From Candidatus Omnitrophota bacterium (GTDB lineage Bacteria; Omnitrophota; Gorgyraeia; Gygaellales; Profunditerraquicolaceae), in contig JAQTQQ010000003.1 of assembly GCA_028712175.1 (NCBI GenBank), forward strand, positions 71,093-135,092: a DNA stretch of 64,000 nt. The letters are read 5' to 3'. The notes under the pieces are model-generated. The model saw nothing but the letters and a program-made list of their open reading frames with translations. It was not told the origin of the DNA and searched no databases. Positions 3,732 through 57,337 of the stretch are shown piece after piece; the stretch's first letter is position 1; each line of letters starts with the position of its first letter. The translations under genes and the position numbers were made by a program.

Positions 3732-4724
3732 ATGGGTATAAAATGGAGAGATTTTCAATTTCCTAAAAAGCTTGAATGTGACGAGTCGACATATACTGAT
3801 ACCTACGGTAAATTTCAGGCAGCTCCTTTTGAAAGAGGATATGGTGTTACTCTGGGCAATTCCTTAAGAAGGGTTTTGCTTTCTTCAATAGAGGGCAGTG
3901 CAATTACCGCGATTAAGGTTGCCGGAGTTGCGCATGAATTTTCGACAATTCCCGGAGTACTGGAGGACGTACCGGAGATTATCCTAAATATCAAAAGCCT
4001 TGTTTTAAATTCGCATTCTAAGATCCCTAAAACTATATATTTAAAAGCGGATAAAAAAGGCGAGGTTAAGGCCAAAGATATAGAAACGGATGAAACTATT
4101 GAGATTATTAATCCGGAATTACACATTGCAACTCTTACCAAAGATACCAAGTTGAATATTGAGATGGAGGTATCCCGCGGCAGAGGATATGTTCCGGCGG
4201 AGCTGAATAAAAGAGAAGATAAGGTAGCCGGTTTTATCGCAATTGATTCAATATTTACTCCCATTAAGAAGATCAATTATTTTGTTGAGAATACGCGCGT
4301 AGGGCAACGTACTGACTATGATAAACTGATCTTAGAGATTTGGACTAACGGTAGCATTAATCCAAAAGACGCGCTGCTTTATGCCTCAAATATTTTACAA
4401 AGGCACCTCGATATTTTTGTTAATTTCGGGCAGCTCCCGGAAGATATCGCGGAAGAAGAGCCGGAGATGACCAAAGAAGATGCGGCGCTTTATGAGAAAT
4501 TAAGGTTGCCGATTTCAGAACTCGAGCTTTCAGTAAGAAGTTCCAACTGTTTAAGAGAAGCCGGTATTAAGACTATCGCAGATCTGGTTAAGAAGACCGA
4601 AGAAGAGATGCTTGGTTTTAAGAATTTCGGCAAGAAATCTCTAACCGAAATTCAAGAGCTGTTAATGGGTATGGGAGTTACTCTGGGGATGCAGGTCGAT
4701 CCTAAGAAAATCAAGAAGGGTTAA
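3732..4724 (+). CDS. rpoA: DNA-directed RNA polymerase alpha subunit
   Basis: 330 aa with an N-terminal dimerisation domain and a C-terminal alphaCTD (helix-hairpin-helix ...LELSVRSSNCLREAGIKTIADLV...). Confidence 0.9.
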   Translation: MGIKWRDFQFPKKLECDESTYTDTYGKFQAAPFERGYGVTLGNSLRRVLLSSIEGSAITAIKVAGVAHEFSTIPGVLEDVPEIILNIKSLVLNSHSKIPKTIYLKADKKGEVKAKDIETDETIEIINPELHIATLTKDTKLNIEMEVSRGRGYVPAELNKREDKVAGFIAIDSIFTPIKKINYFVENTRVGQRTDYDKLILEIWTNGSINPKDALLYASNILQRHLDIFVNFGQLPEDIAEEEPEMTKEDAALYEKLRLPISELELSVRSSNCLREAGIKTIADLVKKTEEEMLGFKNFGKKSLTEIQELLMGMGVTLGMQVDPKKIKKG

Positions 4725-4729
4725 ATAAA

Positions 4730-5299
4730 ATGAGACATGGAAAAAAAAGGATGCAGCTGGGGCGTTTCACCAGCTGGCACGATGCGACAATAACAAGCTT
4801 AGCGAAAAATATGATTATTTGCCAAAGTATTAAAACTACACTGGTAAGGGCTAAGTCTAGCAGGCCAACAGTCGAGAAGCTTATAACTTTGGCCAAAACA
4901 AATACTCTTTTTGCACGCAGGCAGGCGCAGAAGATTTTAGGTGAACACAGACTGGTAAATGTTCTTTTTAACGATATCGGCCCGCGTTTTTCCAAGCGTA
5001 ACAGCGGTTTTACCAGGATTATCAGTTTAGGAAAGCGCCGCGGCGATAATGCGGAAATGGTTATTTTCGAGATGACCGAATTAAAGAAAAAAGAAACAAA
5101 AAAACCTAAAGCAGCCAAAGAAGCTGATCATAAGTCCGAGGTAGGAATAGAGAAAGCTGCCGACGGAAAAGAAACTGGTGAACAAAAGAAAGAAACTAAA
5201 ACGGCTGTTAAAGAAAAACCTGTTGATGAAAAGAAGCCGCCCAAAAAATTTATGGGCGGCTTAAGAACCATATTCAGAAAGAAAAGTGATTCTTTGTAA
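4730..5299 (+). CDS. rplQ: 50S ribosomal protein L17 with about 70-aa K/E-rich C-terminal extension
   Basis: N-terminal 120 aa is L17-like (MRHGKKRMQLGR...RRQAQKIL). It is followed by a low-complexity Lys/Glu/Thr-rich tail (KKKETKKPKAAKEADHK...KKPPKKF...). Confidence 0.8.
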   Translation: MRHGKKRMQLGRFTSWHDATITSLAKNMIICQSIKTTLVRAKSSRPTVEKLITLAKTNTLFARRQAQKILGEHRLVNVLFNDIGPRFSKRNSGFTRIISLGKRRGDNAEMVIFEMTELKKKETKKPKAAKEADHKSEVGIEKAADGKETGEQKKETKTAVKEKPVDEKKPPKKFMGGLRTIFRKKSDSL

Positions 5300-5390
5300 A
5301 TATCATTCCGCGCCTCTAAATATTTTAGTTATTAAGCCTTAAGATCAATGGGCTGAATAAAAAGACGGTGCGGGATAAAGAAAAACTTTT

Positions 5391-6566
5391 ATGAAAATAG
5401 ATACTAGGCTTGCGGAGAGGCTAAAAAAAATTCATCCGTCTTCAACTTTGGCAATTACCTCAAAAGCTAAAAAGCTGAAGACGGAAGGCAAGGATATTGT
5501 TAATTTTGCCGCAGGCGAACCGGATTTTGATACCCCTGATTTTATAAAAGAAGCGGCAATAGGCGCCATAAAATCCGGGTTTACCAAATATACCCCCACC
5601 ACTGGAACTCCTGAATTAAAAAAACTCATCTGCCAGAAATTTAAACGGGATAACTCCTTGGAATACTCCCCGGACCAGGTTATTGTTTCAAACGGGGCAA
5701 AGCACAGCATTTATAATGCGCTCATGGTGTTGTTAAACCGTTCCGATGAGGCGCTTATTCCTTCGCCTTACTGGGTAAGCTATCCTGAAATGGTCAATCT
5801 TTGCGAGGGTACCTGCCGTTTTATAAAAACTACCGCTGCAAATAATTTTAAGATATGCGTAGCAGAGCTTATCAAGCATATTACCCCAAAAACTAAAGTG
5901 CTTATACTTAATAGCCCATCTAACCCGACTGGTTCTGTTTATAACAGAAAAGAATTGGAGGCTATTGCCAGAGTCTGTGTTGATAAAAATATTTTTGTGA
6001 TTAGCGATGAGATTTATGAGAAAATAATCTTTGACGGGCTGAAGCATGAATCAATCGCCAGCTTTAATAAGGATATTTATAATCTTACGATTACGGTCAA
6101 TGGCCTGTCGAAAAGCCATTCAATGACCGGATGGCGTATTGGCTATCTTGGGGCGCCAAGCGATGTGGCGGGTGCAATCTCAAACTTACAGGACCATTCA
6201 ACTTCTAACCCGAACTCTATCGCGCAAAAGGCAGCAGTGTGTGCTTTAAGCGCGCCTGAAGATTTCTCCAATAAGCTGTGCAAGGAGTTTGAGAAGAGAC
6301 GGGACTATTTGGTATCAAGGCTCAAGGAAATTAAGCCTTTAAGTTTTTGCCAGCCGCAAGGCGCATTTTACATGTTTTGTAATATATCCGGGACAAAACT
6401 TGATTCTATGGTTTTTGCCCGTCGCCTTCTCGATGAAAAATATGTAAGCGTTATTCCCGGAAGTGCGTTTGGCATGGATAACTACATACGTATAAGTTAT
6501 GCTACAAGCATAGAGGAATTAGAAAAGGGCATGGATAGGCTCAAAGACTGGGTTGTTAAATTATGA
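5391..6566 (+). CDS. Class I/II PLP-dependent aminotransferase (aspartate/aromatic aminotransferase-like)
   Basis: 391 aa. Fold-type I motifs are present: N-terminal NFAAGEPDF, the SxxxxxTGWRIGY region, and the PLP-lysine region ...LSKSHSMTGWRIGY. Confidence 0.75.
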   Translation: MKIDTRLAERLKKIHPSSTLAITSKAKKLKTEGKDIVNFAAGEPDFDTPDFIKEAAIGAIKSGFTKYTPTTGTPELKKLICQKFKRDNSLEYSPDQVIVSNGAKHSIYNALMVLLNRSDEALIPSPYWVSYPEMVNLCEGTCRFIKTTAANNFKICVAELIKHITPKTKVLILNSPSNPTGSVYNRKELEAIARVCVDKNIFVISDEIYEKIIFDGLKHESIASFNKDIYNLTITVNGLSKSHSMTGWRIGYLGAPSDVAGAISNLQDHSTSNPNSIAQKAAVCALSAPEDFSNKLCKEFEKRRDYLVSRLKEIKPLSFCQPQGAFYMFCNISGTKLDSMVFARRLLDEKYVSVIPGSAFGMDNYIRISYATSIEELEKGMDRLKDWVVKL

Positions 6567-7819
6567 GTGGCCAAACAATAGCTGAAAAGATTTTAAGTAA
6601 GCACGCAGGGAGATATTTACGGGCGGGCGATTTTGCTATTTGTAAAATTGATTTTGCATTCGGCCAAGACGGCACCTCATCGATAATAATCGACCGGATT
6701 AAAGATTTAGGGGTTAAGAAATTTAAGACACGCTATTGCATGGTTATTGACCACAGCGCCCCAAGCCCAAGCGAAGGGGTTTCCCGGGTGCATAAAAAGA
6801 TGCGCGATTTTTCTCAAAAGTTTAAGACGGAGATTTTTGATGTTGGCTGCGGGGTATGCCATCAGGTTATTCCTGAGTCGGGAAATATCATACCCGGCGA
6901 CCTAGTTTTGGGAGCTGACTCTCATACCTGCACCTATGGTGCGCTTGGGGCTTTTTCTACCGGAGTCGGTTCTACTGATTTAGCAGTTGCTCTTGCTACG
7001 GGGAAAAATTGGTTTAAAGTCCCGGAGACTATAAAAATTATTATTAAAGGCAGGATGCCTAAAGGAGTTTTTGCCAAAGATATAATTTTATATATTATCG
7101 GAGAACTTAAGAGTGACGGAGGAACATATAAAGCAGTTGAATTTACCGGCCCGGTGATTGATAATATGGGAATGGACGGCCGCTTTACTATTGCTAATAT
7201 GCTGGTTGAGATGGGGGCAAAAGCAGGTTTTATGCCGGTTGATAAAAAGACTCTTTCCTGGTTGGCTTTGAGGGCGGGGATAAACCGGCGGATTGAAGGT
7301 GTTTCTGCGGATAAAGGAGCTGTCTATCAGAATATTTATGAATTTGATATTTCAAAACTCAAGCCGATGGTTTCTATGCCGCACAGCGTTGACAATACTG
7401 CCTCGGCAGTTTCTCTAAAGAAAACAAAGATTGATGAAGCGTTTTTAGGCACCTGTACTAATGGCCGTATAGATGATTTTAAAGCGGCAGCAAAAGTTTT
7501 AAATAAGCGCAAAGTTTCTAGCCAGGTTAAATTGATCATAGCTCCCAGTTCGAGGCAGGTTTATCTGGAGGCTTTAAAGCTTGGCCTTGTTGAGGTGTTT
7601 ATTAAAGCCGGGGCAGTTATTGTTGCGCCCGGTTGCGGGCCTTGTGTCGGTACACATAACGGCATCCCCAGTGACGCGGAGGTTGTCATTTCAACTGCCA
7701 ACCGTAATTTTAAGGGAAGGATGGGGAATCCTTCGGCTTTTATCTATTTGGCATCACCTGCTACAGTCGCTGCTTCGGCGATTAAAGGCTATATTAGCGA
7801 CCCAAGAATCTACTTCTAA
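6563..7819 (+). CDS. leuC: Aconitase-family dehydratase large subunit (3-isopropylmalate dehydratase/homoaconitase LeuC-like)
   Basis: 418 aa aconitase catalytic domain with CxxC...C Fe-S ligands (GTCTNGR, CGPCVG). Substrate specificity (leu vs homoaconitate vs citramalate) is not decidable from sequence. Confidence 0.8.
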   Translation: MSGQTIAEKILSKHAGRYLRAGDFAICKIDFAFGQDGTSSIIIDRIKDLGVKKFKTRYCMVIDHSAPSPSEGVSRVHKKMRDFSQKFKTEIFDVGCGVCHQVIPESGNIIPGDLVLGADSHTCTYGALGAFSTGVGSTDLAVALATGKNWFKVPETIKIIIKGRMPKGVFAKDIILYIIGELKSDGGTYKAVEFTGPVIDNMGMDGRFTIANMLVEMGAKAGFMPVDKKTLSWLALRAGINRRIEGVSADKGAVYQNIYEFDISKLKPMVSMPHSVDNTASAVSLKKTKIDEAFLGTCTNGRIDDFKAAAKVLNKRKVSSQVKLIIAPSSRQVYLEALKLGLVEVFIKAGAVIVAPGCGPCVGTHNGIPSDAEVVISTANRNFKGRMGNPSAFIYLASPATVAASAIKGYISDPRIYF

Positions 7820-7830
7820 GGAGGTATTTT

Positions 7831-8877
7831 ATGGAAATTCGTGATTTGCTTTTGATGTGTGTTGAAAAAGGCGCTTCAGATTTGCATGTCACAGAGGATG
7901 AACCTCCTATTCTGCGTATTGACGGCAGGTTATTAAGGACGGATAAAGAAATCTTAAGTAAAACAGATTTAAAGAAGATGATTTATAGCGTCCTGTCTAA
8001 TGTTCAAAAAGAGATATTTGAACGCGAATTAGAACTTGATTTTTCGCTTGCCTTGCCGGGATTGGACAGATTCCGTGTTAATATCCATTTACAAAGGGGC
8101 TGCGTGGAAGGGGCCTTTCGCCGTATTCCGATAGAAATACCTACCGTTGAAAGATTGGGCCTGCCTAAGATCATATCGGATCTTGCGCGCAAGCCAAATG
8201 GTTTAGTTTTGGTAACCGGCCCTACCGGAATGGGTAAGACCACAACCTTGGCCGCAATGATTGATCTAATTAATTCCGAAAGAGAATGCTTGATTACTTG
8301 TATCGAGGACCCGATAGAGTTTATTTACGCTAATAAAAAAAGTATAGTCAAACAGCGCGAAGTTTATTCTGATACGCATTCTTTTGCTGAAGCCTTGCGC
8401 CATGCTTTACGCCAGGATCCTAATGTTATTGTTGTCGGCGAAATGCGCGACTTGGAAACTATTTCGACTGCTTTAACCGCGGCTGAAACCGGGCACCTTG
8501 TTTTGGCTACGCTGCATACCCCTGATGCGCCGCAGACTGTTTCCAGGATTATTGATGTTTTTCCTCCTCACCAGCAGCAACAGGTTAAATTACAGCTTTC
8601 TGACTGTTTGCAGGGAGTAGTCTCACAGCTCTTGCTTCCTAATGCATCAGGAAAGGGCCGCGTATTGGCAACAGAGATTATGGTAGCTACTGCCAGTATC
8701 CGTAACCTTATCCGTGAGCAGCAGATCGAACAGATTCCAACGATTATGCAGACCGGTTTGCAATATGGAATGAATACTATGGATAAGTCTTTAAAAGACC
8801 TTACGCAGAGAGGGCTAATTACTCTGGATATGGCTATGTCCAAGGCTAAGAATATGGAAGAATTTAAGCAGCTATGA
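7831..8877 (+). CDS. pilT: Type IV pilus retraction ATPase PilT
   Basis: 348 aa. N-terminus MEIRDLL....GASDLH. Walker A at GPTGMGKTT, Asp box and His box (LATLHT) of PilT/PilU secretion ATPases. Confidence 0.85.
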   Translation: MEIRDLLLMCVEKGASDLHVTEDEPPILRIDGRLLRTDKEILSKTDLKKMIYSVLSNVQKEIFERELELDFSLALPGLDRFRVNIHLQRGCVEGAFRRIPIEIPTVERLGLPKIISDLARKPNGLVLVTGPTGMGKTTTLAAMIDLINSERECLITCIEDPIEFIYANKKSIVKQREVYSDTHSFAEALRHALRQDPNVIVVGEMRDLETISTALTAAETGHLVLATLHTPDAPQTVSRIIDVFPPHQQQQVKLQLSDCLQGVVSQLLLPNASGKGRVLATEIMVATASIRNLIREQQIEQIPTIMQTGLQYGMNTMDKSLKDLTQRGLITLDMAMSKAKNMEEFKQL

Positions 8878-9374
8878 GTATCACGGGAAAAAGTATAAAA
8901 TTAGGGGATAATATTAATACGGATTTTATTATTTCCGGCCGGTATAAATTTGCTATTACCGACATGAAGGAGTTGGCAAAGCATATTATGGAAGATATTG
9001 ACCCGAATTTCCCGCAAAAGATAACCGCGGGCAAATCCATAATTGTGGCCGGTAATAACTTCGGCATGGGCTCAAGCAGGGAACAGGCGCCGCTTGTAAT
9101 CAAAGAGGCCGGTATTGTTGCCGTTTTATCGCCGCAATTTGCGCGGATATTTTTCCGTAACGGATTTAATATCGGACTGCCGTTAATTGAAACGGATACC
9201 TCCAGAATTGAAGAAGCTGATGAGCTTGAAATTGATTTGGATAATGGCGTGGTGAAGAATGTAACCAAAGGTATTGTTTTAAAGATTAAGCCTTTGCCGA
9301 AATTTATGCAGGACCTTTTAGCCGAAGGCGGCATTATTAATTATTATAAAAAGCATGGAGAGTTGAAAGTCTAA
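8874..9374 (+). CDS. leuD: Aconitase-family dehydratase small subunit (LeuD-like, short archaeal-type)
   Basis: 166 aa swivel domain (NTDFIISGRY...GNNFGMGSSREQAP). Its ATG overlaps the pilT stop. Confidence 0.75.
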   Translation: MSITGKSIKLGDNINTDFIISGRYKFAITDMKELAKHIMEDIDPNFPQKITAGKSIIVAGNNFGMGSSREQAPLVIKEAGIVAVLSPQFARIFFRNGFNIGLPLIETDTSRIEEADELEIDLDNGVVKNVTKGIVLKIKPLPKFMQDLLAEGGIINYYKKHGELKV

Positions 9375-10466
9375 ATGCAGCATAGAATAACCCTTATTCC
9401 AGGAGACGGCATTGGTTATGAAGTTTCGCTTGCAGCTACGCGATGCATAGAGGCTTGCGGCGTAGATATTAAATGGGATAATGTGCTTGCCGGCAGCGAT
9501 GCCCTTAAAGAAACCGGAGAACTCCTTCCTGAAAGTGCGCTGGCCTCAATAAGAAAAAATAAAGTAGCCCTCAAGGGGCCGATTACTACCCCCATAGGTA
9601 CCGGTTTTCGTTCGGTTAATGTCGCAATTCGGCATGCTTTGGATCTTTATGCCTGCTTGCGCCCGGCGAAAAGCTATGTCGGGGTGAAGAGCAGGTTTAA
9701 AGATATCGATTTAATCATTGTCAGGGAGAATAGCGAAGATCTTTATGCGGGCATCGAATATGAAGAAGGAAAGCCGGAAACTTTAGGCTTGATTGAAAGG
9801 ATAAAAAGAGATACGAATAAGGTTATCCGTCTTGATTCCGGTATCTCTATTAAACCTATATCCGAATTTGCCTCTGAAAGGATTGTAAGATTTGCCTTTG
9901 AGTACGCTTTAAAGAATAAGCGTAAGAAAGTTACTTGTGTGCATAAGGCTAATATCATGAAATTTAGCGATGGGCTATTCTTGAAAACGGCCCGTCAGGT
10001 TGCCTCCGAATTCTCCTCAAAAGTAGTTTTTGATGAAGCGATTGTCGATAATATGGCCATGCAACTGGTACAAAAGCCGCATAATTATGATGTTTTAGTC
10101 CTGCCTAATCTTTACGGGGATATTGTTTCTGATCTTTGTGCCGGCCTTGTTGGAGGCTTGGGGGTTGCCCCTGGGGCAAATATCGGCTCTGACATGGCAG
10201 TATTTGAGGCAGTGCATGGATCTGCGCCAAAATATAAAGGTAAAAATAAAGTCAATCCTACCGCGATGATTTTATCCGGTGCTTTAATGTTGCGTTATAT
10301 CGGAGAAAATAAGGCGGCGGATATTTTAGAGGAAGCGGTGAAAGAGGTAATTGCCGAAGGTAAATTAGTAACCTATGATTTAAAACCTGATCCATCTGAC
10401 CCGTCTGCTGTCGGCACCCTAGAGATGTCTGATGCCATTATCAGCAAAATAAAGGAAAATTTATAA
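9375..10466 (+). CDS. 3-isopropylmalate/isocitrate dehydrogenase family enzyme (LeuB-like)
   Basis: 363 aa with the beta-decarboxylating dehydrogenase signature (LIPGDGIGYEV, NLYGDIVSDL). Confidence 0.75.
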   Translation: MQHRITLIPGDGIGYEVSLAATRCIEACGVDIKWDNVLAGSDALKETGELLPESALASIRKNKVALKGPITTPIGTGFRSVNVAIRHALDLYACLRPAKSYVGVKSRFKDIDLIIVRENSEDLYAGIEYEEGKPETLGLIERIKRDTNKVIRLDSGISIKPISEFASERIVRFAFEYALKNKRKKVTCVHKANIMKFSDGLFLKTARQVASEFSSKVVFDEAIVDNMAMQLVQKPHNYDVLVLPNLYGDIVSDLCAGLVGGLGVAPGANIGSDMAVFEAVHGSAPKYKGKNKVNPTAMILSGALMLRYIGENKAADILEEAVKEVIAEGKLVTYDLKPDPSDPSAVGTLEMSDAIISKIKENL

Positions 10467-10470
10467 TTTT

Positions 10471-11391
10471 ATGAAAATATCGATTATTGGCGCCGGAAAT
10501 GTCGGAAGTTTAAGCGCCATGCGTATCGCCAGTGACGGCCTTGGGGATGTTTTTCTTATTGATGTAGTAAAAGGGCTTGCGCACGGCAAGGCTTTGGATT
10601 TAGAGGATGCCCGCCCGCTTTTAAAATATAATTATAATATCAATGGCAGCGATGATATTGGAAATGTCAAAGATTCCGATATTATTGTCATTACTGCCGG
10701 ACTTGCGCGTAAGCCCGGTATGAGCCGGGAAGAACTGTTGGTAAAAAATGCCCAAATTTTAAAAAGCATCTGTTTAGGGATTAAAGAGTTAGCGAAAAAG
10801 GCAATAGTAGTAGTGGTAACTAACCCTTTGGACATTATGACATATTACGCTTTAAAAATTACGGGATTTAAACCGTCCAAAGTTTTTGGTATGGGGATTA
10901 GTTTGGATACCGCCAGATTTGTTAATTTAATTGCCCAAGAATTAAATTTGCCGGTCACTGATATTGAGGCAATGGTAATAGGCGCCCATGGCGAGAACAT
11001 GCTTCCGCTGCCCGGTTTTTCCAAGGTAAAAGGCGTCTCTTTGGATGAGTTTATCAGTGATGATAAAGTTAAATTGTTAGTTAACCGTACTATTTCTAGA
11101 GGAGCAGAGATTGTTGCAAACCTGGGTACAGGGAGCGCATATTTTGCTCCGTCCGCTGCGATTGCCTGTATTGTGAAAACTATGGTAAAAGATGAAAAAC
11201 GCACTATCGGCTTGTGTAGTTATTTAAGCGGACAGTATGGCATTAAAGATGCCTGTATAGGCGTGCCTTGCCGTTTAGGCAAGAACGGAATCGAACAGGT
11301 CATAGAGCTGGATATTTCGCAGGAAGAAAAAGCTAAGCTTGAGAAATCAGCAATGCTGGTGGCAAGCGCAACGGCACAATTAATTGCATAA
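10471..11391 (+). CDS. mdh: Malate/lactate dehydrogenase (LDH-like MDH family)
   Basis: N-terminal Rossmann motif KISIIGAGNVG. Catalytic GAHGENMLPL region. 306 aa. Confidence 0.75.
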   Translation: MKISIIGAGNVGSLSAMRIASDGLGDVFLIDVVKGLAHGKALDLEDARPLLKYNYNINGSDDIGNVKDSDIIVITAGLARKPGMSREELLVKNAQILKSICLGIKELAKKAIVVVVTNPLDIMTYYALKITGFKPSKVFGMGISLDTARFVNLIAQELNLPVTDIEAMVIGAHGENMLPLPGFSKVKGVSLDEFISDDKVKLLVNRTISRGAEIVANLGTGSAYFAPSAAIACIVKTMVKDEKRTIGLCSYLSGQYGIKDACIGVPCRLGKNGIEQVIELDISQEEKAKLEKSAMLVASATAQLIA

Positions 11392-11394
11392 CTT

Positions 11395-12690
11395 ATGCCT
11401 AAATATGATCTGGCTGTTATCGGAGCGGGTTGGGCGGGTTATAACGCTGCCATTAAGGCAAAAGAGCTTGGCCTCAAGGTTTGCCTTATTGAAAAAGACC
11501 GGATCGGAGGCACCTGCTTAAATTACGGCTGCATACCTACCAAAATACTAATTCAATCCGCAAAAATATTTTTACAAGCCTTAAAATCGAAAACCTTTGG
11601 CGTAGAATTAGAGAATCCCCGGGTTAATTTCGGACAAATCCAGCAGAGAAAAGATAAAATTATAAGCTTGCTTGCGCAGGGAATGCAAAGCCGGCTTAAA
11701 GGCATTGATTTTATCAAAACAGGCGCACAAATTATTTCTCCCGGACGGATAAAAATTGAAAGCGGGGAGATCCAGGCAAAATTCATACTTATTGCTTCCG
11801 GGAGCCGCCCCGTTGAACTGGCGGGAGAAATAATTGATAGTGATAAAATAATTTCAAGCAATGAGGCCCTTTCGTTAACGGATCTTCCTGAGTCCTTGTT
11901 AATTGTCGGAGGGGGGTTCATCGGTTGTGAATTCGCCGGTTTATTCTCGGCTTTAGGCAGCCAGGTAACTATCGCCGAGAGAATGCCCTTGCTCTTGCCT
12001 GGCCAGGACAGCCAGATTAGCAGAAAGATCGAAGTAATTTTTAACAAAAAAGGGATTAAGGTTTCTTGCGGCGCAGATATATCCAGCTTTAATTTAAATA
12101 ATTATTCCCATATTCTGGCATGTTTGGGGAGGGCTCCCAATATTTCGGATTTAGGCCTGGATAGTCTGGGTTTAAAATTAGAAAATAACAGGATAGCCGT
12201 TGATGGCTACCTGAAGACCAGTGTTGATAATATATATGCTGCCGGAGATTGTGCCTCAAAGTTAATGCTTGCTCATTATGCAGCATATCAGGGTGCTCTT
12301 GCCGTTGAAAACATAATTTCCGATAATAGCCATAAAGCGGACAATTTTATTGTCCCGGCTTGCGTATTTACCGAACCGCAAATTTCTTCCGTGGGAATGA
12401 GTGAAGAAAACGCAGCAGATGCGGGAATAAAGATAAAGGTGCATAAATTCGATTTTCGCGCATCTGCAATGGCGCATGTTATTGATGAGGCGGAGGGGTT
12501 TATCAAGATTATCAGTAATTTGGAAACCCAAGAGGTCGTTGGTGCCTGCATGATCGGCCCGGGCGCCTGTGAATTAATCGCAGTGCCTACGATGGCAATC
12601 TCAGCGCGTCTAAATATCAAGCAGTTGCGGGAAATGATATTTGCGCATCCTACTCTTTCTGAAAGTTTGCGTGAAACTATAAATAACTAG
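11395..12690 (+). CDS. lpd: Dihydrolipoyl dehydrogenase-like flavoprotein disulfide reductase
   Basis: FAD-binding motif GAGWAGY. Redox-active disulfide GGTCLNYGCIPTK. C-terminal HPTLSE dimerisation motif. Confidence 0.7.
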   Translation: MPKYDLAVIGAGWAGYNAAIKAKELGLKVCLIEKDRIGGTCLNYGCIPTKILIQSAKIFLQALKSKTFGVELENPRVNFGQIQQRKDKIISLLAQGMQSRLKGIDFIKTGAQIISPGRIKIESGEIQAKFILIASGSRPVELAGEIIDSDKIISSNEALSLTDLPESLLIVGGGFIGCEFAGLFSALGSQVTIAERMPLLLPGQDSQISRKIEVIFNKKGIKVSCGADISSFNLNNYSHILACLGRAPNISDLGLDSLGLKLENNRIAVDGYLKTSVDNIYAAGDCASKLMLAHYAAYQGALAVENIISDNSHKADNFIVPACVFTEPQISSVGMSEENAADAGIKIKVHKFDFRASAMAHVIDEAEGFIKIISNLETQEVVGACMIGPGACELIAVPTMAISARLNIKQLREMIFAHPTLSESLRETINN

Positions 12691-12700
12691 GGAGGCTTTT

Positions 12701-12937
12701 ATGGTTAAAGTCGTTTTACCGGAATTAGGAGAAGGAATAACAAAGGCGACTGTAACGTATTGGTTTTTTAAAGACGGAGAGATGGTTCATCAAAATGATG
12801 ACCTAGTTGAGCTAACGACCGATAAATCTACATTTAATTTACCCAGCCCCTGTACAGGAATAATCTCTGAAATAACCTATAGTGAAGGCTCAAGCGTAAA
12901 CGTGGGCCAAATTCTGGCTGTGATTAATGAAAGCTGA
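12701..12937 (+). CDS. Stand-alone lipoyl/biotinyl attachment domain protein (78 aa)
   Basis: Single hybrid-barrel domain with a candidate lipoyl-lysine in ...VELTTDKSTFNLPSP... (ETDKA-like). There is no E2 catalytic domain. Confidence 0.65.
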   Translation: MVKVVLPELGEGITKATVTYWFFKDGEMVHQNDDLVELTTDKSTFNLPSPCTGIISEITYSEGSSVNVGQILAVINES

Positions 12938-19772: not shown

Positions 19773-20633
19773 ATGAGTCCTGCCAGTGATCCTGTAAGAA
19801 ACGATTCTTTTTTAACCATCTCTATAGCTGATATTAAAATTAGGTTTGAGGCTTTAAACAGCCGCCTTCTTAAAAGCCTAAAAGTCCATTATGGTGGTTT
19901 TTGCATATCAAGTGCCATTTCTGATGTCGCGATACGCTTAATTGAAAGGAAAATCTCTGTACCCAACGGTTCTGCGCTATTATACAAAAATAGGACGTGG
20001 AGCGTAGTAAAAGATTCTAAATACAAATGGATCATTTTTTCTGATAATTCGGTTGCCTGTTGCTCGCATGATTGGAGCAGGGTAGATTTCTTTAGCGAAG
20101 GCCCACGGCAGCAATTGCTTTTTTTCTTGTTGCCGGAAATATTGACGATATCCGCATTGCCCAAATTTAAAGGATTAATGGCCCATGGCTGTGGCGTGTT
20201 AGACAGAACAGGAAAGCAGGGCTGGGCTTTTTTAGCTTCTTCTGGCGGAGGAAAGTCTACTATGGCCGGGCTGCTTAAACCCTACGTACGTGTTTTAAAT
20301 GATGATAGAATTATTTTGCGTAAAACTAAGGACGGGGTAAGAATGTATGGGACGCCCTGGCATGGGGAATTATCATTGACTTCATCAAAATCCGTATTGA
20401 TTAGGGATATCTATTTTTTGCAAAAAGCGGGTATTCATAGCATTAATTCAATGAGCAAATTGATATTCCTGAAAGGTTTATTAAAAAATACTGCTTTGCC
20501 TAAATGGGATAACAATGCATATAGGATCACTCTGCGGCTGTTATTTTTTCTGGCGGAATATATGTGCGGCAAAAAGTTGCATTTTGCTAAAAACAGTTCA
20601 GTGTATGGATATATTAAAAGGGAATTGACTTAA
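19773..20633 (+). CDS. HPr kinase/phosphorylase C-terminal-domain-like putative peptide Ser kinase
   Basis: 286 aa. ...MAHGCGVLDRTGKQGWAFLASSGGGKSTMAGLL...VLNDDRIIL... is a P-loop of the HprK-related type (cf. HprK GDSGVGKSE). There is no HprK N-domain. Confidence 0.65.
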   Translation: MSPASDPVRNDSFLTISIADIKIRFEALNSRLLKSLKVHYGGFCISSAISDVAIRLIERKISVPNGSALLYKNRTWSVVKDSKYKWIIFSDNSVACCSHDWSRVDFFSEGPRQQLLFFLLPEILTISALPKFKGLMAHGCGVLDRTGKQGWAFLASSGGGKSTMAGLLKPYVRVLNDDRIILRKTKDGVRMYGTPWHGELSLTSSKSVLIRDIYFLQKAGIHSINSMSKLIFLKGLLKNTALPKWDNNAYRITLRLLFFLAEYMCGKKLHFAKNSSVYGYIKRELT

Positions 20634-20635
20634 GA

Positions 20636-22042
20636 ATGATGCAAGAAGAGGAAATGTTTATCCCTCCGGATGTTGCCTGGCGCCCTGTGGGAGACCGTTT
20701 AGTTGTAATTAAAATTGCATCTGGCCAGCATCCCGAGCATACGATTACCGAGTTAAATAGAGAAGCCGCTCTTATTTGGAAGTTTTTTTCCGAAACAGGG
20801 CTAAGCCATGGCCGGCTCATTGCAAAATTAATGCCGCATTATAATATAAACCGGTCAAGCATGGCTTCGGATATCTCGGCATTTTTGAATAAGGCTATCG
20901 CAAAAGGGCTGCTTCAGAAAACAACTAAAAAAAAGAGCTTTCGGGATGGCCGCCTTGCTTCCCAAGATTTTCCGGTATGGACGGAATATTTCTCTTACTG
21001 TTTTAAAAATCTCATCCCTTATTCAGCGACATTGGAATTAAATACTACCTGTAACCAAAGATGCCTGCACTGTTATAATAACGGACACGGAGAAGCCGGT
21101 TTATCGGCAAAATTGGTTTATAGCGCTTTAGACCAGCTTTCCGATTTGGGAACGATTATTCTCTTGCTTAGCGGAGGCGAGCCTTTGATGCGGAAGGATT
21201 TTTTTAAATTGGCTGCATATGCGCGACAAAGGCATTTTGCCTTAAGAATATTTACTAACGCAACATTAATTGATGAAGAAAGCGCAAAGAAAATCAGCCA
21301 GTTATACCCAATGACTGTTGAAACGAGCCTGTATGGCATATCAAGCCGGGTGCATGAACGGATTACGCAGCGTAAGGGGTCTTTTATGCGTACGATAAAA
21401 GCAATCCGTTTCTTGAAGAAATACCAGGTTCCGGTATTTGTTAAAGTGGTTTTGATGCGTGAAAACGCTGTAGAGATAAAACGGTTGGAGGATTTTGTAG
21501 TTAACATATTAGGAGTTGGGTTTCGTGGTGTAAGCCCTATTATAACCCCAAAAACATCCGGCAATTTTTTGCCCATGAAGCATGTTGTTTCTCGAAATAT
21601 GCTGAAAGAGTATTTAAACAGCTTGCGATATACTGCCTCGGGATTAAAGGCTAAGCCAATGGTTGATAAGAGCAGCAATAAGGCAATAAATAAAGGCCGC
21701 TTGTGTGGTTCCGGAAGGACTACGATTTATATAAATGCAAAAGGCAGACTCTCTCCTTGCTTAGAAGCAGAAACCACAAGCTGGAATATAAAAAAAGATC
21801 GTATTCGTGATTTTTGGCAGAATTCAAGCGAACTTGCGGCGCTTAGATCGTTATCTCCGGAAGCATTGGTGCAGTGTAAGGCCTGTCCGGACAAAGAATT
21901 TTGTATTTTTTCCTGCATTGCTTTATCAAAAAAAATATATGGCGATTATGCCGTTCCTATTAAAAAATATTGTGAATTTACAAAGGTATACAGGGCTTCT
22001 TCTGTAGCAAGCCGAGTGGATCAAAAGAGGCAGTTTATTTAA
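20636..22042 (+). CDS. PqqD-like RRE domain fused to radical SAM / SPASM-domain peptide maturase
   Basis: N-terminal roughly 95 aa is PqqD-like (WRPVGDRLVVIKIASGQHPEHTITELNREAALIWKFF..., ...ISAFLNKAIAKGLL). rSAM cluster CNQRCLHCYN plus LLSGGEPLM. C-terminal SPASM cysteines CGSGRTTIYINAKGRLSPC...CKACPDKEFC. Confidence 0.8.
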   Translation: MMQEEEMFIPPDVAWRPVGDRLVVIKIASGQHPEHTITELNREAALIWKFFSETGLSHGRLIAKLMPHYNINRSSMASDISAFLNKAIAKGLLQKTTKKKSFRDGRLASQDFPVWTEYFSYCFKNLIPYSATLELNTTCNQRCLHCYNNGHGEAGLSAKLVYSALDQLSDLGTIILLLSGGEPLMRKDFFKLAAYARQRHFALRIFTNATLIDEESAKKISQLYPMTVETSLYGISSRVHERITQRKGSFMRTIKAIRFLKKYQVPVFVKVVLMRENAVEIKRLEDFVVNILGVGFRGVSPIITPKTSGNFLPMKHVVSRNMLKEYLNSLRYTASGLKAKPMVDKSSNKAINKGRLCGSGRTTIYINAKGRLSPCLEAETTSWNIKKDRIRDFWQNSSELAALRSLSPEALVQCKACPDKEFCIFSCIALSKKIYGDYAVPIKKYCEFTKVYRASSVASRVDQKRQFI

Positions 22043-45688: not shown

Positions 45689-46180
45689 TTACCTGTTTGT
45701 TGTAAGAGTAGTAATTTTTCCTTCAAGCTCTAATTCCACGCTATTTGGAGTAATTTTTCTTACTTTCGCCCCGCTAACAGAATCGTTCTCTTTTACAATC
45801 CGGTTGTTTATTAACGCGTATTTGCCGTTAGTTGAGAAGAAAGTTCCGTTTAAAACAAAATTTCTTTTTTCTGATTCAAGATCGGGCTCCGGGGTTTTGC
45901 TTTTTTCTTTTGGCGGCTCTGCCGGGGTAACGGCTAAAGCAGGAGGGGTAACTGCCAATTGTCCGGCAGGGATAGTTTTTTTGGGGGCCTCTTGAGGTTT
46001 TGCTTTTTTGTTTAATATATTTAATATGATATTGCCTAAAAACAGCCCTACTAAAAGAACCAGTATATATAAAAGTATTGGGTTTTGCGCAGGCTTTGTT
46101 TCTGCGGGCGCATTTTGATGAGCAGTATTTCCTGGGTTCTGCGCTTCCGGATTTTTCAGGGGTTCATTAATAATACTCAT
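45689..46180 (-). CDS. Pro/Ala-rich membrane-anchored protein with GspB-like (T2SS protein B) C-terminal domain
   Basis: TM at ...ILLYILVLLVGLFLG.... Pro-rich linker. C-terminus ...FVLNGTFFSTNGKYALINNRIVKENDSV.GAKVRKITPNSVELE.... Confidence 0.4.
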   Translation of the reverse strand: MSIINEPLKNPEAQNPGNTAHQNAPAETKPAQNPILLYILVLLVGLFLGNIILNILNKKAKPQEAPKKTIPAGQLAVTPPALAVTPAEPPKEKSKTPEPDLESEKRNFVLNGTFFSTNGKYALINNRIVKENDSVSGAKVRKITPNSVELELEGKITTLTTNR

Positions 46181-46416: not shown

Positions 46417-46763
46417 TTCAAGCGATGGATAGGGTAGGTAAGAAAGAAAATCGGTGTTTCCCGCGGATAGACTTTCACTCAAAAATTCATTATCAGATTA
46501 GAGGCAAGCCGGATTTTGATAGCGCGCTTAGCAACGATATAAGCTGCGGCGGCTTAAGGTTTAGTAATGACAGGTTTATTCCTACTCTAACTGCGCTGAT
46601 GCTTGAGATAAAAGTTTTAAACCGCGTATTAAGGCCTATCGGGAAAATAGTATGGTTTTCATCTTTGGGCCATTCTAACCGTAATCAAATGGGCGTAGAG
46701 TTTGTAGAATTCGACCCGTCAGAAAAAAAATACCTTAAAGATTTTATAAACATGCAGCTTTAA
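46407..46763 (+). CDS. PilZ-domain protein (c-di-GMP receptor-like); true start possibly ATG 46425
   Basis: RxxxR (RCFPR) and DxSxxG (NDISCGG) PilZ motifs. Confidence 0.65.
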   Translation: MLSFQAMDRVGKKENRCFPRIDFHSKIHYQIRGKPDFDSALSNDISCGGLRFSNDRFIPTLTALMLEIKVLNRVLRPIGKIVWFSSLGHSNRNQMGVEFVEFDPSEKKYLKDFINMQL

Positions 46764-46794: not shown

Positions 46795-46992
46795 ATGGCA
46801 GGCGAAGCAGATAAGGAAAAAGGAGCTGGAGAAAAACCAAAAGCAGAGAAACAAACCAATTGTCCTTCTTGTAATAAACTTATAAAGAAGTTAAAACGGT
46901 ATTATCGAAACGGTAAGCTATATTGCAGCAAAAAATGCTGGCGTGCTTTTGTGGTTAAGTCAAAAGAAGAAGCCGGCAAAGAGAATAAATGA
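46795..46992 (+). CDS. Small zinc-ribbon protein
   Basis: 65 aa, CPSC...16 aa...CSKKC, flanked by K/E-rich tails. Sits between two PilZ genes. Confidence 0.45.
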   Translation: MAGEADKEKGAGEKPKAEKQTNCPSCNKLIKKLKRYYRNGKLYCSKKCWRAFVVKSKEEAGKENK

Positions 46993-47339
46993 CAAGAAGC
47001 CTTAAAGAACGCAGGTTACACCCTAGAATAGACCACCGGCTGCCGCTTAACCTGGCGGTTAACGGTTATGATTTCTCTACTTCCACCCACAATATCAGCA
47101 GTGTCGGCGCTTACTGCCATCTGGATAAATACATGCCGCCTTTTACTAAGATTTCTGTTAAATTAAGCCTTCCAAATAAAGAGAAGGCCGGCAAGAATAC
47201 TATTGTCGAATGCAGGGGAGTAGTAGTGAGGTCTGAGGATGAAGCCGCAGGAGGGTTTAACTTGGCCATATTCTTCAATGATATCCGCGATGACCAGCGT
47301 AAAAAAATTGCCCATTATGTAAGCCAATTCTTGCCTTAA
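46989..47339 (+). CDS. PilZ-domain protein
   Basis: RRLHPRIDHR (RxxxR) and NISSVGA motifs. Confidence 0.7.
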   Translation: MTRSLKERRLHPRIDHRLPLNLAVNGYDFSTSTHNISSVGAYCHLDKYMPPFTKISVKLSLPNKEKAGKNTIVECRGVVVRSEDEAAGGFNLAIFFNDIRDDQRKKIAHYVSQFLP

Positions 47340-50721: not shown

Positions 50722-51036
50722 TTAATCTCCGTAGACAGTGGTGGTGTATTCACCATAAATGCCCAGAATATTCTTGGCATCGTAGTCTACATATTTGATG
50801 TTTCTGATTCCGCCTTCTGAAGCCGCGGCTTTTATGCTGCAATCGCCTGTTGCCACTAAGCCTAAGATGGAGGTAGCTTTAGATGTCCCTACTTTACTGT
50901 AAGAGATTCCGCCATCCGCAGCACCTACAGGGGCTTTGACTTCGGTATAAAGCATTCCCATCGGATACGGGGTGGCACAACCATTAAGCAATACCGCAAC
51001 AAATAAAACCAAAACAATAAAACTTATTTTCTTCAT
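50722..51036 (-). CDS. TRL-like family lipoprotein
   Basis: Lipobox LNGCATP. 104 aa Gly-rich sequence typical of the TRL domain. Confidence 0.55.
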   Translation of the reverse strand: MKKISFIVLVLFVAVLLNGCATPYPMGMLYTEVKAPVGAADGGISYSKVGTSKATSILGLVATGDCSIKAAASEGGIRNIKYVDYDAKNILGIYGEYTTTVYGD

Positions 51037-56920: not shown

Positions 56921-57337
56921 TTGGGCGGAGGTTTTATGGCTGATAGCCTGAACAGAAGGAGATCCGAACGCAAGGATATTGCATATACTTTTACCTATAG
57001 CGTTGAAGAGCCTTATGAATTGCGACTTAGCATGACGCTGGCGGATAATCTAGACGTATTAATGCTTGATTTAAGCGACTTAGGCATGGCTATTGTCACA
57101 AAAGATAATTTACCTGTTGGCGCAAAGCTGCTTTTAAAGTTTAATCTTATGAATTTAAAGTTATCCGGAGAAGAGCGCTTAAGGCGCCTGGAGATTAAAG
57201 GCGAGGTAGCCTCCAATGTTATGTTTCCGGATACAAGCCATAGAATAGGCATATGTTTTAACAAGGTTTCCGAAGAAGATAAAGCTGCGATAGGTGAATT
57301 TGTGAGGCTTAATAAAATAAATGACGGGAGGAGTTAA
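56921..57337 (+). CDS. PilZ-domain protein (third copy)
   Basis: RRRSERK (RxxxR) and DLSDLGMA (DxSxxG) motifs. Confidence 0.65.
   Translation: MGGGFMADSLNRRRSERKDIAYTFTYSVEEPYELRLSMTLADNLDVLMLDLSDLGMAIVTKDNLPVGAKLLLKFNLMNLKLSGEERLRRLEIKGEVASNVMFPDTSHRIGICFNKVSEEDKAAIGEFVRLNKINDGRS

Follow-up and report, generated by a model that had tools for sequence, protein, structure and literature searches.

The gene pilT, which encodes the retraction ATPase of type IV pili, separates the two genes that encode the subunits of an aconitase-family dehydratase in a 64,000-nt stretch of a genome of Candidatus Omnitrophota, an uncultivated phylum of nanobacteria (assembly GCA_028712175.1, contig JAQTQQ010000003.1, positions 71,093 to 135,092), hereafter the window. 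The large- and small-subunit genes of the dehydratase are called hacA and hacB here, and coordinates are window positions unless another locus is named. The reading that we favour, with a probability of roughly 0.7, is that a canonical PilT, resident in the genome and serving the Omnitrophota type-4a pilus, moved once into the short spacer between hacA and hacB and is likely co-transcribed with the surrounding housekeeping block. What we describe is an unreported, clade-defining change of gene order between two well-known protein families, not a new molecular system. Full-text searches for Omnitrophota together with PilT, type IV pili or aconitase, and for pilT together with leuC and leuD, returned no earlier report of pilT between dehydratase subunits.

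Window genes were identified by an open reading frame (ORF) scan combined with Pfam and NCBIfam hidden Markov model (HMM) searches, and junctions were read directly from the sequence. Genes on the + strand form a continuous series from rpoA to a gene for a small lipoyl-domain protein (Table 1). Within this series, a tightly packed block begins with aspAT, the stop of which overlaps the hacA start by 4 nt, and ends with the lipoyl-protein gene. All gaps in the block fall within −4 to 11 nt on one strand (aspAT/hacA −4, hacA-pilT 11, pilT/hacB −4, hacB-icd 0, icd-mdh 4, mdh-lpd 3), and the block is flanked by wider gaps, 91 nt after rplQ upstream and 258 nt after the lipoyl-protein gene downstream. 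The hacA stop codon TAA (7817-7819) runs into the AAGGAGG sequence that precedes the pilT ATG, and the pilT stop TGA (8875-8877) shares an ATGA with the hacB start (8874-8876). There is no GGAGG-like site within about 20 nt 5′ of the hacB ATG. Chance ORFs are excluded for hacA, pilT and hacB because their HMM scores are so high. The first-pass annotation of this DNA, made from the letters alone, had described the order large subunit-PilT-small subunit, a pilT start 12 nt after the stop of a "leuC", a pilT stop overlapping the small-subunit ATG and a complete PilT with the Walker A motif GPTGMGKTT. All of these ORFs were found as described, the 11 nt between the genes representing the same geometry, and the Walker A motif occupies PilT residues 130-138.

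To collect related loci, a PilT-seeded scan of species-representative genomes was combined with a large-subunit-seeded scan of metagenome contigs. Synteny in related genomes, which had been proposed as a check, turned out to be extensive: the order large subunit-PilT-small subunit is present in 46 loci (the window and 45 others) from different species, samples and assemblies. They include complete chromosomes, namely, that of Ca. Velamenicoccus archaeovorus LiM (NZ_CP019384, locus L027) and CP070837 (L030). A Candidatus Omnitrophota metagenome-assembled genome (MAG; GCA_028718085.1) likewise encodes the exact window PilT, on its contig JAQUMO010000002.1, and an independent Logan contig of the same organism (run SRR27370451) carries the exact PilT with identical neighbours. 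In addition, neither GC content nor skew shows a break across positions 7500-9000. The suspicion, raised beforehand, that a pilT segment had been misjoined between the dehydratase genes during assembly is thus dispelled: the NCBI MAG and the independent Logan assembly show an identical arrangement, loci produced by different assemblers agree and the composition is unbroken, so that the chance of a chimera is negligible.

Three arrangements of this region are relevant to its history. In state i, that of the window and the 45 other loci, the gene order is aspAT-hacA-pilT-hacB-icd. In state ii-A, found in 12 metagenome loci and in named Omnitrophota MAGs, the block is likewise attached to rpoA-rplQ-aspAT, hacA and hacB are adjacent and pilT is absent; the MAGs of this state share the gene order of the window all the way from the ribosomal protein genes to the monogalactosyldiacylglycerol (MGDG)-synthase and acyltransferase genes. 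The sister-clade block rpoA-rplQ-aspAT-hacA-hacB-icd-mdh (for example, GCA_016782425.1, JADHYN010000003.1; GCA_023818895.1, JAMWCX010000001.1) matches the window gene for gene, except that it has no pilT and that its hacA and hacB either share 4 nt or lie 3 nt apart. In state iii, the order is aspAT-pilT-icd and both dehydratase genes are missing (L022, L024, L025, which is the complete chromosome OY759724.1, and L028), as are mdh and lpd; in L025 (positions 4765-8163 of that locus) the spacers around pilT measure 69 and 18 nt. The two deletions seen in state iii leave precisely pilT behind.

We built a neighbour-joining tree of concatenated HacA, HacB and isocitrate dehydrogenase (IDH)-like sequences (939 columns, 100 bootstraps, midpoint root). 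The root separated the Omnitrophota block (100% support) from the hacA-hacB-icd clusters found in other lineages, state ii-A formed a clade (100%) and all state i loci formed one group (80%). In a second neighbour-joining tree, based on rpoA, AspAT and IDH (1066 columns), state iii was monophyletic (100%) and nested within state i (98%). Gene orders and trees indicate that pilT was inserted once into an older rpoA-rplQ-aspAT-hacA-hacB-icd-mdh block, in the ancestor of a large Omnitrophota clade, with the direction of the change established by the pilT-less loci of the sister clade. In the simplest sequence of events, an ancestor with adjacent, often overlapping hacA and hacB would have received pilT a single time, and one subclade would later have lost hacA and hacB together with mdh and lpd. 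The guess that this might be a lineage-specific operon fusion has held up in the form of a rearrangement, one insertion common to a large clade. The annotation had also named contiguous leuC-leuD genes in orthologous loci, with pilT elsewhere, as an observation that would speak against it. Such loci, with no pilT between the subunit genes, do exist in the sister clade, yet instead of refuting the event they show its direction.

As for the source of the inserted gene, in a PilT tree the proteins of states i and iii are closest to other Omnitrophota PilTs encoded in tandem pilT-pilT loci (L031, L034 and L035), followed by those of Sumerlaeota; in the loci of other phyla a PilB-like gene is commonly found upstream of pilT. 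Because the nearest PilT relatives are Omnitrophota proteins, relocation within the genome is favoured over acquisition from another phylum, and the tandem locus may be the ancestral site of the relocated gene. A recent horizontal acquisition of pilT was considered and rejected, given these nearest relatives and the lack of a GC or skew break. A search for the pilT site in the pilT-less sister clade found only the tandem loci of other Omnitrophota, which could not be linked to the sister-clade genomes. In the tandem loci (L031, positions 4894-7047; L034; L035) the second PilT-like ATPase is 40-47% identical, and L031, the sole tandem locus with Pfam annotation, has no other pilus genes nearby.

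The window PilT matches the PilT/PilU family model TIGR01420 with 464.2 bits (cutoff 319.1) over residues 3-344 of 348. Alignments to PilTs of solved structure, namely, Geobacter 5zfq (E = 6.4e−119), 6ojx, Aquifex aeolicus 2ewv and Pseudomonas aeruginosa 3jvu/3jvv, span the protein from end to end, with E-values ranging from 6.4e−119 to 8.9e−101, whereas PilU (9n32, E = 8.3e−75) and PilB chains are clearly weaker matches. The catalytic motifs of secretion-superfamily ATPases are all present: Walker A, the Asp box IEDPIEF, Walker B DPNVIVVGEMRD and the His box TGHLVLATLHT; their key residues are invariant in an alignment of 45 clade members. A C-terminal AIRNLIRE-type motif distinguishes PilT from PilU. 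The window PilT has it as SIRNLIRE at residues 289-296, and the xIRNLIRE motif is kept across the clade. No domains other than those of retraction ATPases were detected, the alignment with the latter being full length. In length, motifs and likeness to solved structures the window gene product is a canonical PilT, with retraction as its predicted activity. The best 120 database clusters for this protein share lengths of 345-348 aa and identities of 83-97%. Across 44 loci the median identities are 78.6% for PilT, 72.0% for HacA, 75.6% for HacB and 73.4% for IDH, and in 33 of them no metabolic neighbour is more conserved than PilT. The findings on this locus indicate that the retraction motor is under strong constraint. 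Omnitrophota PilTs do differ from those of other phyla in two places, a Met or Val replacing Ser in Walker A (GPTG[M/V]GKTT versus GPTGSGKST, residues 130-138) and a Tyr replacing Gly in REV[Y/G] (residues 176-181). Both changes also occur in the tandem-locus PilTs outside the dehydratase block and, being present in Omnitrophota PilTs that lack that context, are unrelated to the insertion.

The split enzyme around pilT had been called "leuC/leuD" and assigned to amino-acid or 2-oxoacid chain elongation. The aconitase-family assignment stands, the leucine label less so. HacA scores above the subfamily cutoffs of NF001614 (548.5 bits versus 385) and TIGR02086 (531.7 versus 410.15), and HacB above that of TIGR02087 (183.4 versus 108.95). 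Both fall below the LeuC and LeuD equivalog cutoffs (TIGR02083, 470.8 versus 610.65; TIGR02084, 180.5 versus 245.85) and below those of the methanogen-type homoaconitase (HacA_Meth NF040615, 443.8 versus 550; HacB_Meth NF040625, 179.5 versus 230). The large subunit conserves the iron-sulfur (Fe-S) ligand motifs GTCTNGR and GCGPCVG, with the three Cys ligands of the 4Fe-4S cluster, and the small subunit can be aligned from end to end with the structures 3vba, of Methanocaldococcus jannaschii, and 2pkp. Its substrate loop (within residues of about 11-33) reads GRYKFAIT in the window and GRYKF[A/S]IT overall, has one extra residue and is unlike the YLVY of M. jannaschii isopropylmalate isomerase (3vba) and the YLRT of homoaconitase. 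The YKF loop is kept in relatives from other lineages (L085-L164), many of which have an icd-like gene directly after, and points to a substrate class that is as yet uncharacterised and may be that of a two-subunit aconitase. The best solved relatives of the icd product are isocitrate dehydrogenases (6lky, E = 2.2e−105), versus E-values of about 1e−70 for homoisocitrate dehydrogenases and of 1e−41 to 1e−61 for isopropylmalate dehydrogenases.

By its model scores HacAB is an archaeal-type two-subunit dehydratase of the aconitase superfamily (NF001614/TIGR02086 plus TIGR02087), with a substrate predicted only by context. That context consists of IDH-like and malate dehydrogenase genes instead of leuA and leuB, and metabolic reconstructions of Omnitrophota describe a biosynthetic "horseshoe" tricarboxylic acid (TCA) cycle supplying 2-oxoglutarate for nitrogen assimilation (PMC8542988; PMC10066038). 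On account of these neighbours and of the published cycle, a TCA-type aconitase or homoaconitase role is more likely for HacAB than one in leucine biosynthesis. Annotators should thus be cautious with "leuC/leuD" labels at such loci, since the flanking genes probably encode subunits of a TCA-type (homo)aconitase.

The window has the geometry of a coupled operon, with genes on the same strand and very short or overlapping junctions. The genes from aspAT to the lipoyl-protein gene would form one transcription unit, possibly read through from rpoA-rplQ as well. Within it, pilT would be translated from its own strong Shine-Dalgarno site, and ribosomes terminating at the pilT stop would reinitiate at the hacB ATG (termination-reinitiation). 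There is no room for a pilT promoter outside the hacA coding sequence; for this reason, and because its stop overlaps the hacB start, pilT is most likely transcribed with the block. Alternatively, a promoter towards the 3′ end of hacA, or one within the spacer, could drive pilT independently; the arrangement would then have no co-expression meaning. With 50-201 nt, the hacA-pilT spacer of many relatives leaves room for a promoter, and promoter-like hexamers occur inside hacA at 7071-7098 and 7137-7165. We scanned the junctions of the window and of three long-spacer relatives for promoters and terminators and searched Rfam at E ≤ 0.1. Promoter-like hits in the window are at chance level (36 found versus 34.2 expected), the window spacer is just 11 nt, and in the three scanned loci with long spacers neither the hacA-pilT nor the pilT-hacB spacer had a reported terminator-like site on the + strand. 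Moreover, the ATGA overlap without a nearby Shine-Dalgarno site argues that pilT and hacB are on one message. An independent promoter is unlikely on this evidence; the scans by themselves neither support nor exclude internal promoters. The terminator signal in the window was likewise not above chance, promoter and terminator hits in the three long-spacer relatives were at chance level too, and no Rfam element matched at the threshold used, so the idea that the junctions harbour an RNA element or a terminator was rejected as well. A look for V. archaeovorus expression data in the supplements of PMC12583861 turned up neither PilT nor aconitase.

Several observations weigh against the favoured reading. 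The 4-nt ATGA overlap of pilT and hacB is found in 24 of the 46 loci, deep branches included (L026, L030, L033, L113 and L130), while in the other 22 the genes do not overlap and gaps reach 257 nt. The hacA-pilT spacer varies from 3 to 201 nt, and in V. archaeovorus it is 145 nt long and contains GC-rich hairpins. Coupling is thus not a general feature of these loci, and internal promoters may occur. Co-transcription and coupled translation of the block, likely as they are, are read from geometry only. Finally, the trees are neighbour-joining trees of few genes, and monophyly of the insertion has just 80% bootstrap support.

The V. archaeovorus hairpins correspond to two GC-rich inverted repeats in the 145-nt spacer (NZ_CP019384.1, positions 5858-5935 of locus L027), GGCCGGATGCCGGCC and GTAAATTTCCC...GGGAAATTTAC. 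A T-run follows neither of them, and they are absent from the window. They could represent an RNA-stabilising, attenuating or repetitive extragenic palindrome (REP)-like element, and regulation may differ between lineages.

The first-pass annotation had noted that no pilB, pilC or pilM-Q genes are nearby and had asked whether this PilT might have a non-pilus role. The former is correct for the entire window: Pfam lists for the 64 kb include no other pilus genes (PilA, B, C, M-Q). Apart from PilT, the only pilus- or motility-associated domains in the window belong to three small PilZ-domain proteins, candidate cyclic di-GMP receptors, at about 46425-46763, 46989-47339 and 56936-57337. In type IVa systems pilT often lies far from pilB/C/D and pilM-Q, as in Pseudomonas aeruginosa. 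Type-4a pilus genes have been reported in nearly all Omnitrophota, usually clustered at another site beside an unusual F-type ATPase, and V. archaeovorus, according to the same authors citing Kizina et al. 2022, expresses type-4a pili (Seymour et al. 2023, PMC10066038). For both reasons, the missing pilus genes are weak evidence for a non-pilus role. Each pilT-containing MAG contributed one PilT match among the best 80 matches, which is weak evidence on the number of paralogues.

No evidence for a role outside the pilus was found. Such a role could take the form of a hexameric ATPase that binds, assembles or regulates HacAB, or that couples retraction or predation to TCA or Fe-S status, and pilT does have an old and conserved place inside a two-subunit enzyme, often with translational coupling, in a region with no pilus genes within 64 kb. 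However, the nested subclade without hacA and hacB keeps pilT at the same spot, which argues that PilT is independent of HacAB, and the sister clade has HacAB without an interleaved pilT, which argues that HacAB can do without a pilT next to it. Substitutions specific to the clade (Met/Val for Ser in Walker A, REVY for REVG), which might have been taken as a sign of a new function, recur in Omnitrophota PilTs outside the dehydratase context, and the protein aligns with retraction ATPases over its full length without extra domains. With canonical length, motifs and structural likeness, and with pilT retained where hacAB was lost, a dehydratase-linked role appears very improbable. States ii-A and iii also disfavour an obligatory PilT-HacAB partnership. 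We give a similarly slim chance to the idea that the interleaving is itself functional and ties the output or activity of PilT, in these host-dependent nanobacteria, to the oxidative TCA branch, through either a fixed PilT:HacB stoichiometry set by termination-reinitiation or a physical interaction of PilT with the dehydratase. If it were true, pilus retraction, and hence attachment or predation, would track carbon, 2-oxoglutarate or Fe-S status.

A role in the pilus is the best-supported one for the window PilT, for this organism by inference from its relatives and homologs. The most economical account of a resident pilus motor moved once into the dehydratase operon is that its position between the subunits would be a frozen accident, which persists because pilT is under strong purifying selection, because co-expression of hacA and hacB is selected and because restoring hacA-hacB coupling would require a clean excision. 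The retraction motor would in effect be expressed steadily, together with housekeeping genes directly downstream of the ribosomal spc/alpha operon, in ultra-small bacteria that are probably epibiotic or predatory. Probable expression of pilT from such a block fits the central role proposed for type-4a pili in the Omnitrophota lifestyle. For systematics, the one-gene insertion offers a clean marker for a large Omnitrophota clade, rare as a genomic change and simple to score, and the loss of the hac genes with pilT retained is a second derived state that marks a subclade.

Table 1. Genes and junction elements from rpoA to the end of the tightly packed block (window positions).
Feature	Position	Strand	Evidence or remark
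rpoA	3732-4724	+	
rplQ	4730-5299	+	
aspAT, class I aminotransferase (aspartate-aminotransferase-like)	5391-6566	+	Pfam Aminotran_1_2, E = 2.1e−81
hacA, aconitase-family dehydratase large subunit, archaeal-type HacA/LeuC family, 418 aa	6563-7819	+	Pfam Aconitase, E = 1.9e−102; NF001614
Shine-Dalgarno AAGGAGG for pilT	7818-7824	+	abuts hacA stop, 6 nt 5′ of pilT ATG (sequence)
pilT, type IV pilus retraction ATPase, 348 aa	7831-8877	+	TIGR01420
ATGA overlap of pilT stop and hacB start	8874-8877	+	sequence
hacB, aconitase-family dehydratase small subunit, LeuD/HacB type, 166 aa	8874-9374	+	TIGR02087
icd, isocitrate-dehydrogenase-like beta-decarboxylating dehydrogenase	9375-10466	+	Pfam Iso_dh, E = 3e−103
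mdh, malate dehydrogenase	10471-11391	+	NF004863, 377.2 bits (cutoff 283)
lpd, dihydrolipoyl dehydrogenase	11395-12690	+	TIGR01350, 431.3 bits (cutoff 408.8)
small lipoyl/biotinyl-domain protein, last gene of tight block	12701-12937	+	Pfam Biotin_lipoyl

Among the neighbouring genes, the aspAT product scores 458 bits against the NCBIfam model of archaeal aspartate aminotransferase, under its cutoff of 550. Nearly all genes in the window (1-64000) are on the + strand, with about two called on the − strand, near 45689-46180 and 50722-51036; along with this extreme co-orientation, cumulative GC skew climbs steadily over the first 16 kb, the part that was profiled. At 19773-22042, a gene with a faint ScmC match precedes one for a radical SAM/SPASM protein that has a PqqD-like domain. 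The pair may function in peptide maturation of the type known from ribosomally synthesized and post-translationally modified peptides (RiPPs), and it is unrelated to the pilT finding.

The window PilT agrees with PilT retraction ATPases (TIGR01420) in length class, end-to-end alignment and all motifs. Many pilT genes, for example those of the P. aeruginosa pilT-pilU pair, are likewise located away from pilus assembly genes. A common setting of pilT in the loci fetched from other phyla is just after a gene for a pilB-like ATPase or next to a paralogue, whereas in the window it is interleaved in a central-metabolism block. The HacAB pair, in turn, resembles archaeal-type dehydratases, represented by the isopropylmalate/citramalate isomerase 3vba and the homoaconitase small subunit 2pkp, in subfamily scores, Cys ligands and small-subunit alignment. 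It differs from them by the unrelated gene between its subunits, by the extra-residue loop, by equivalog scores below cutoff and by its context of IDH-like and malate dehydrogenase genes.

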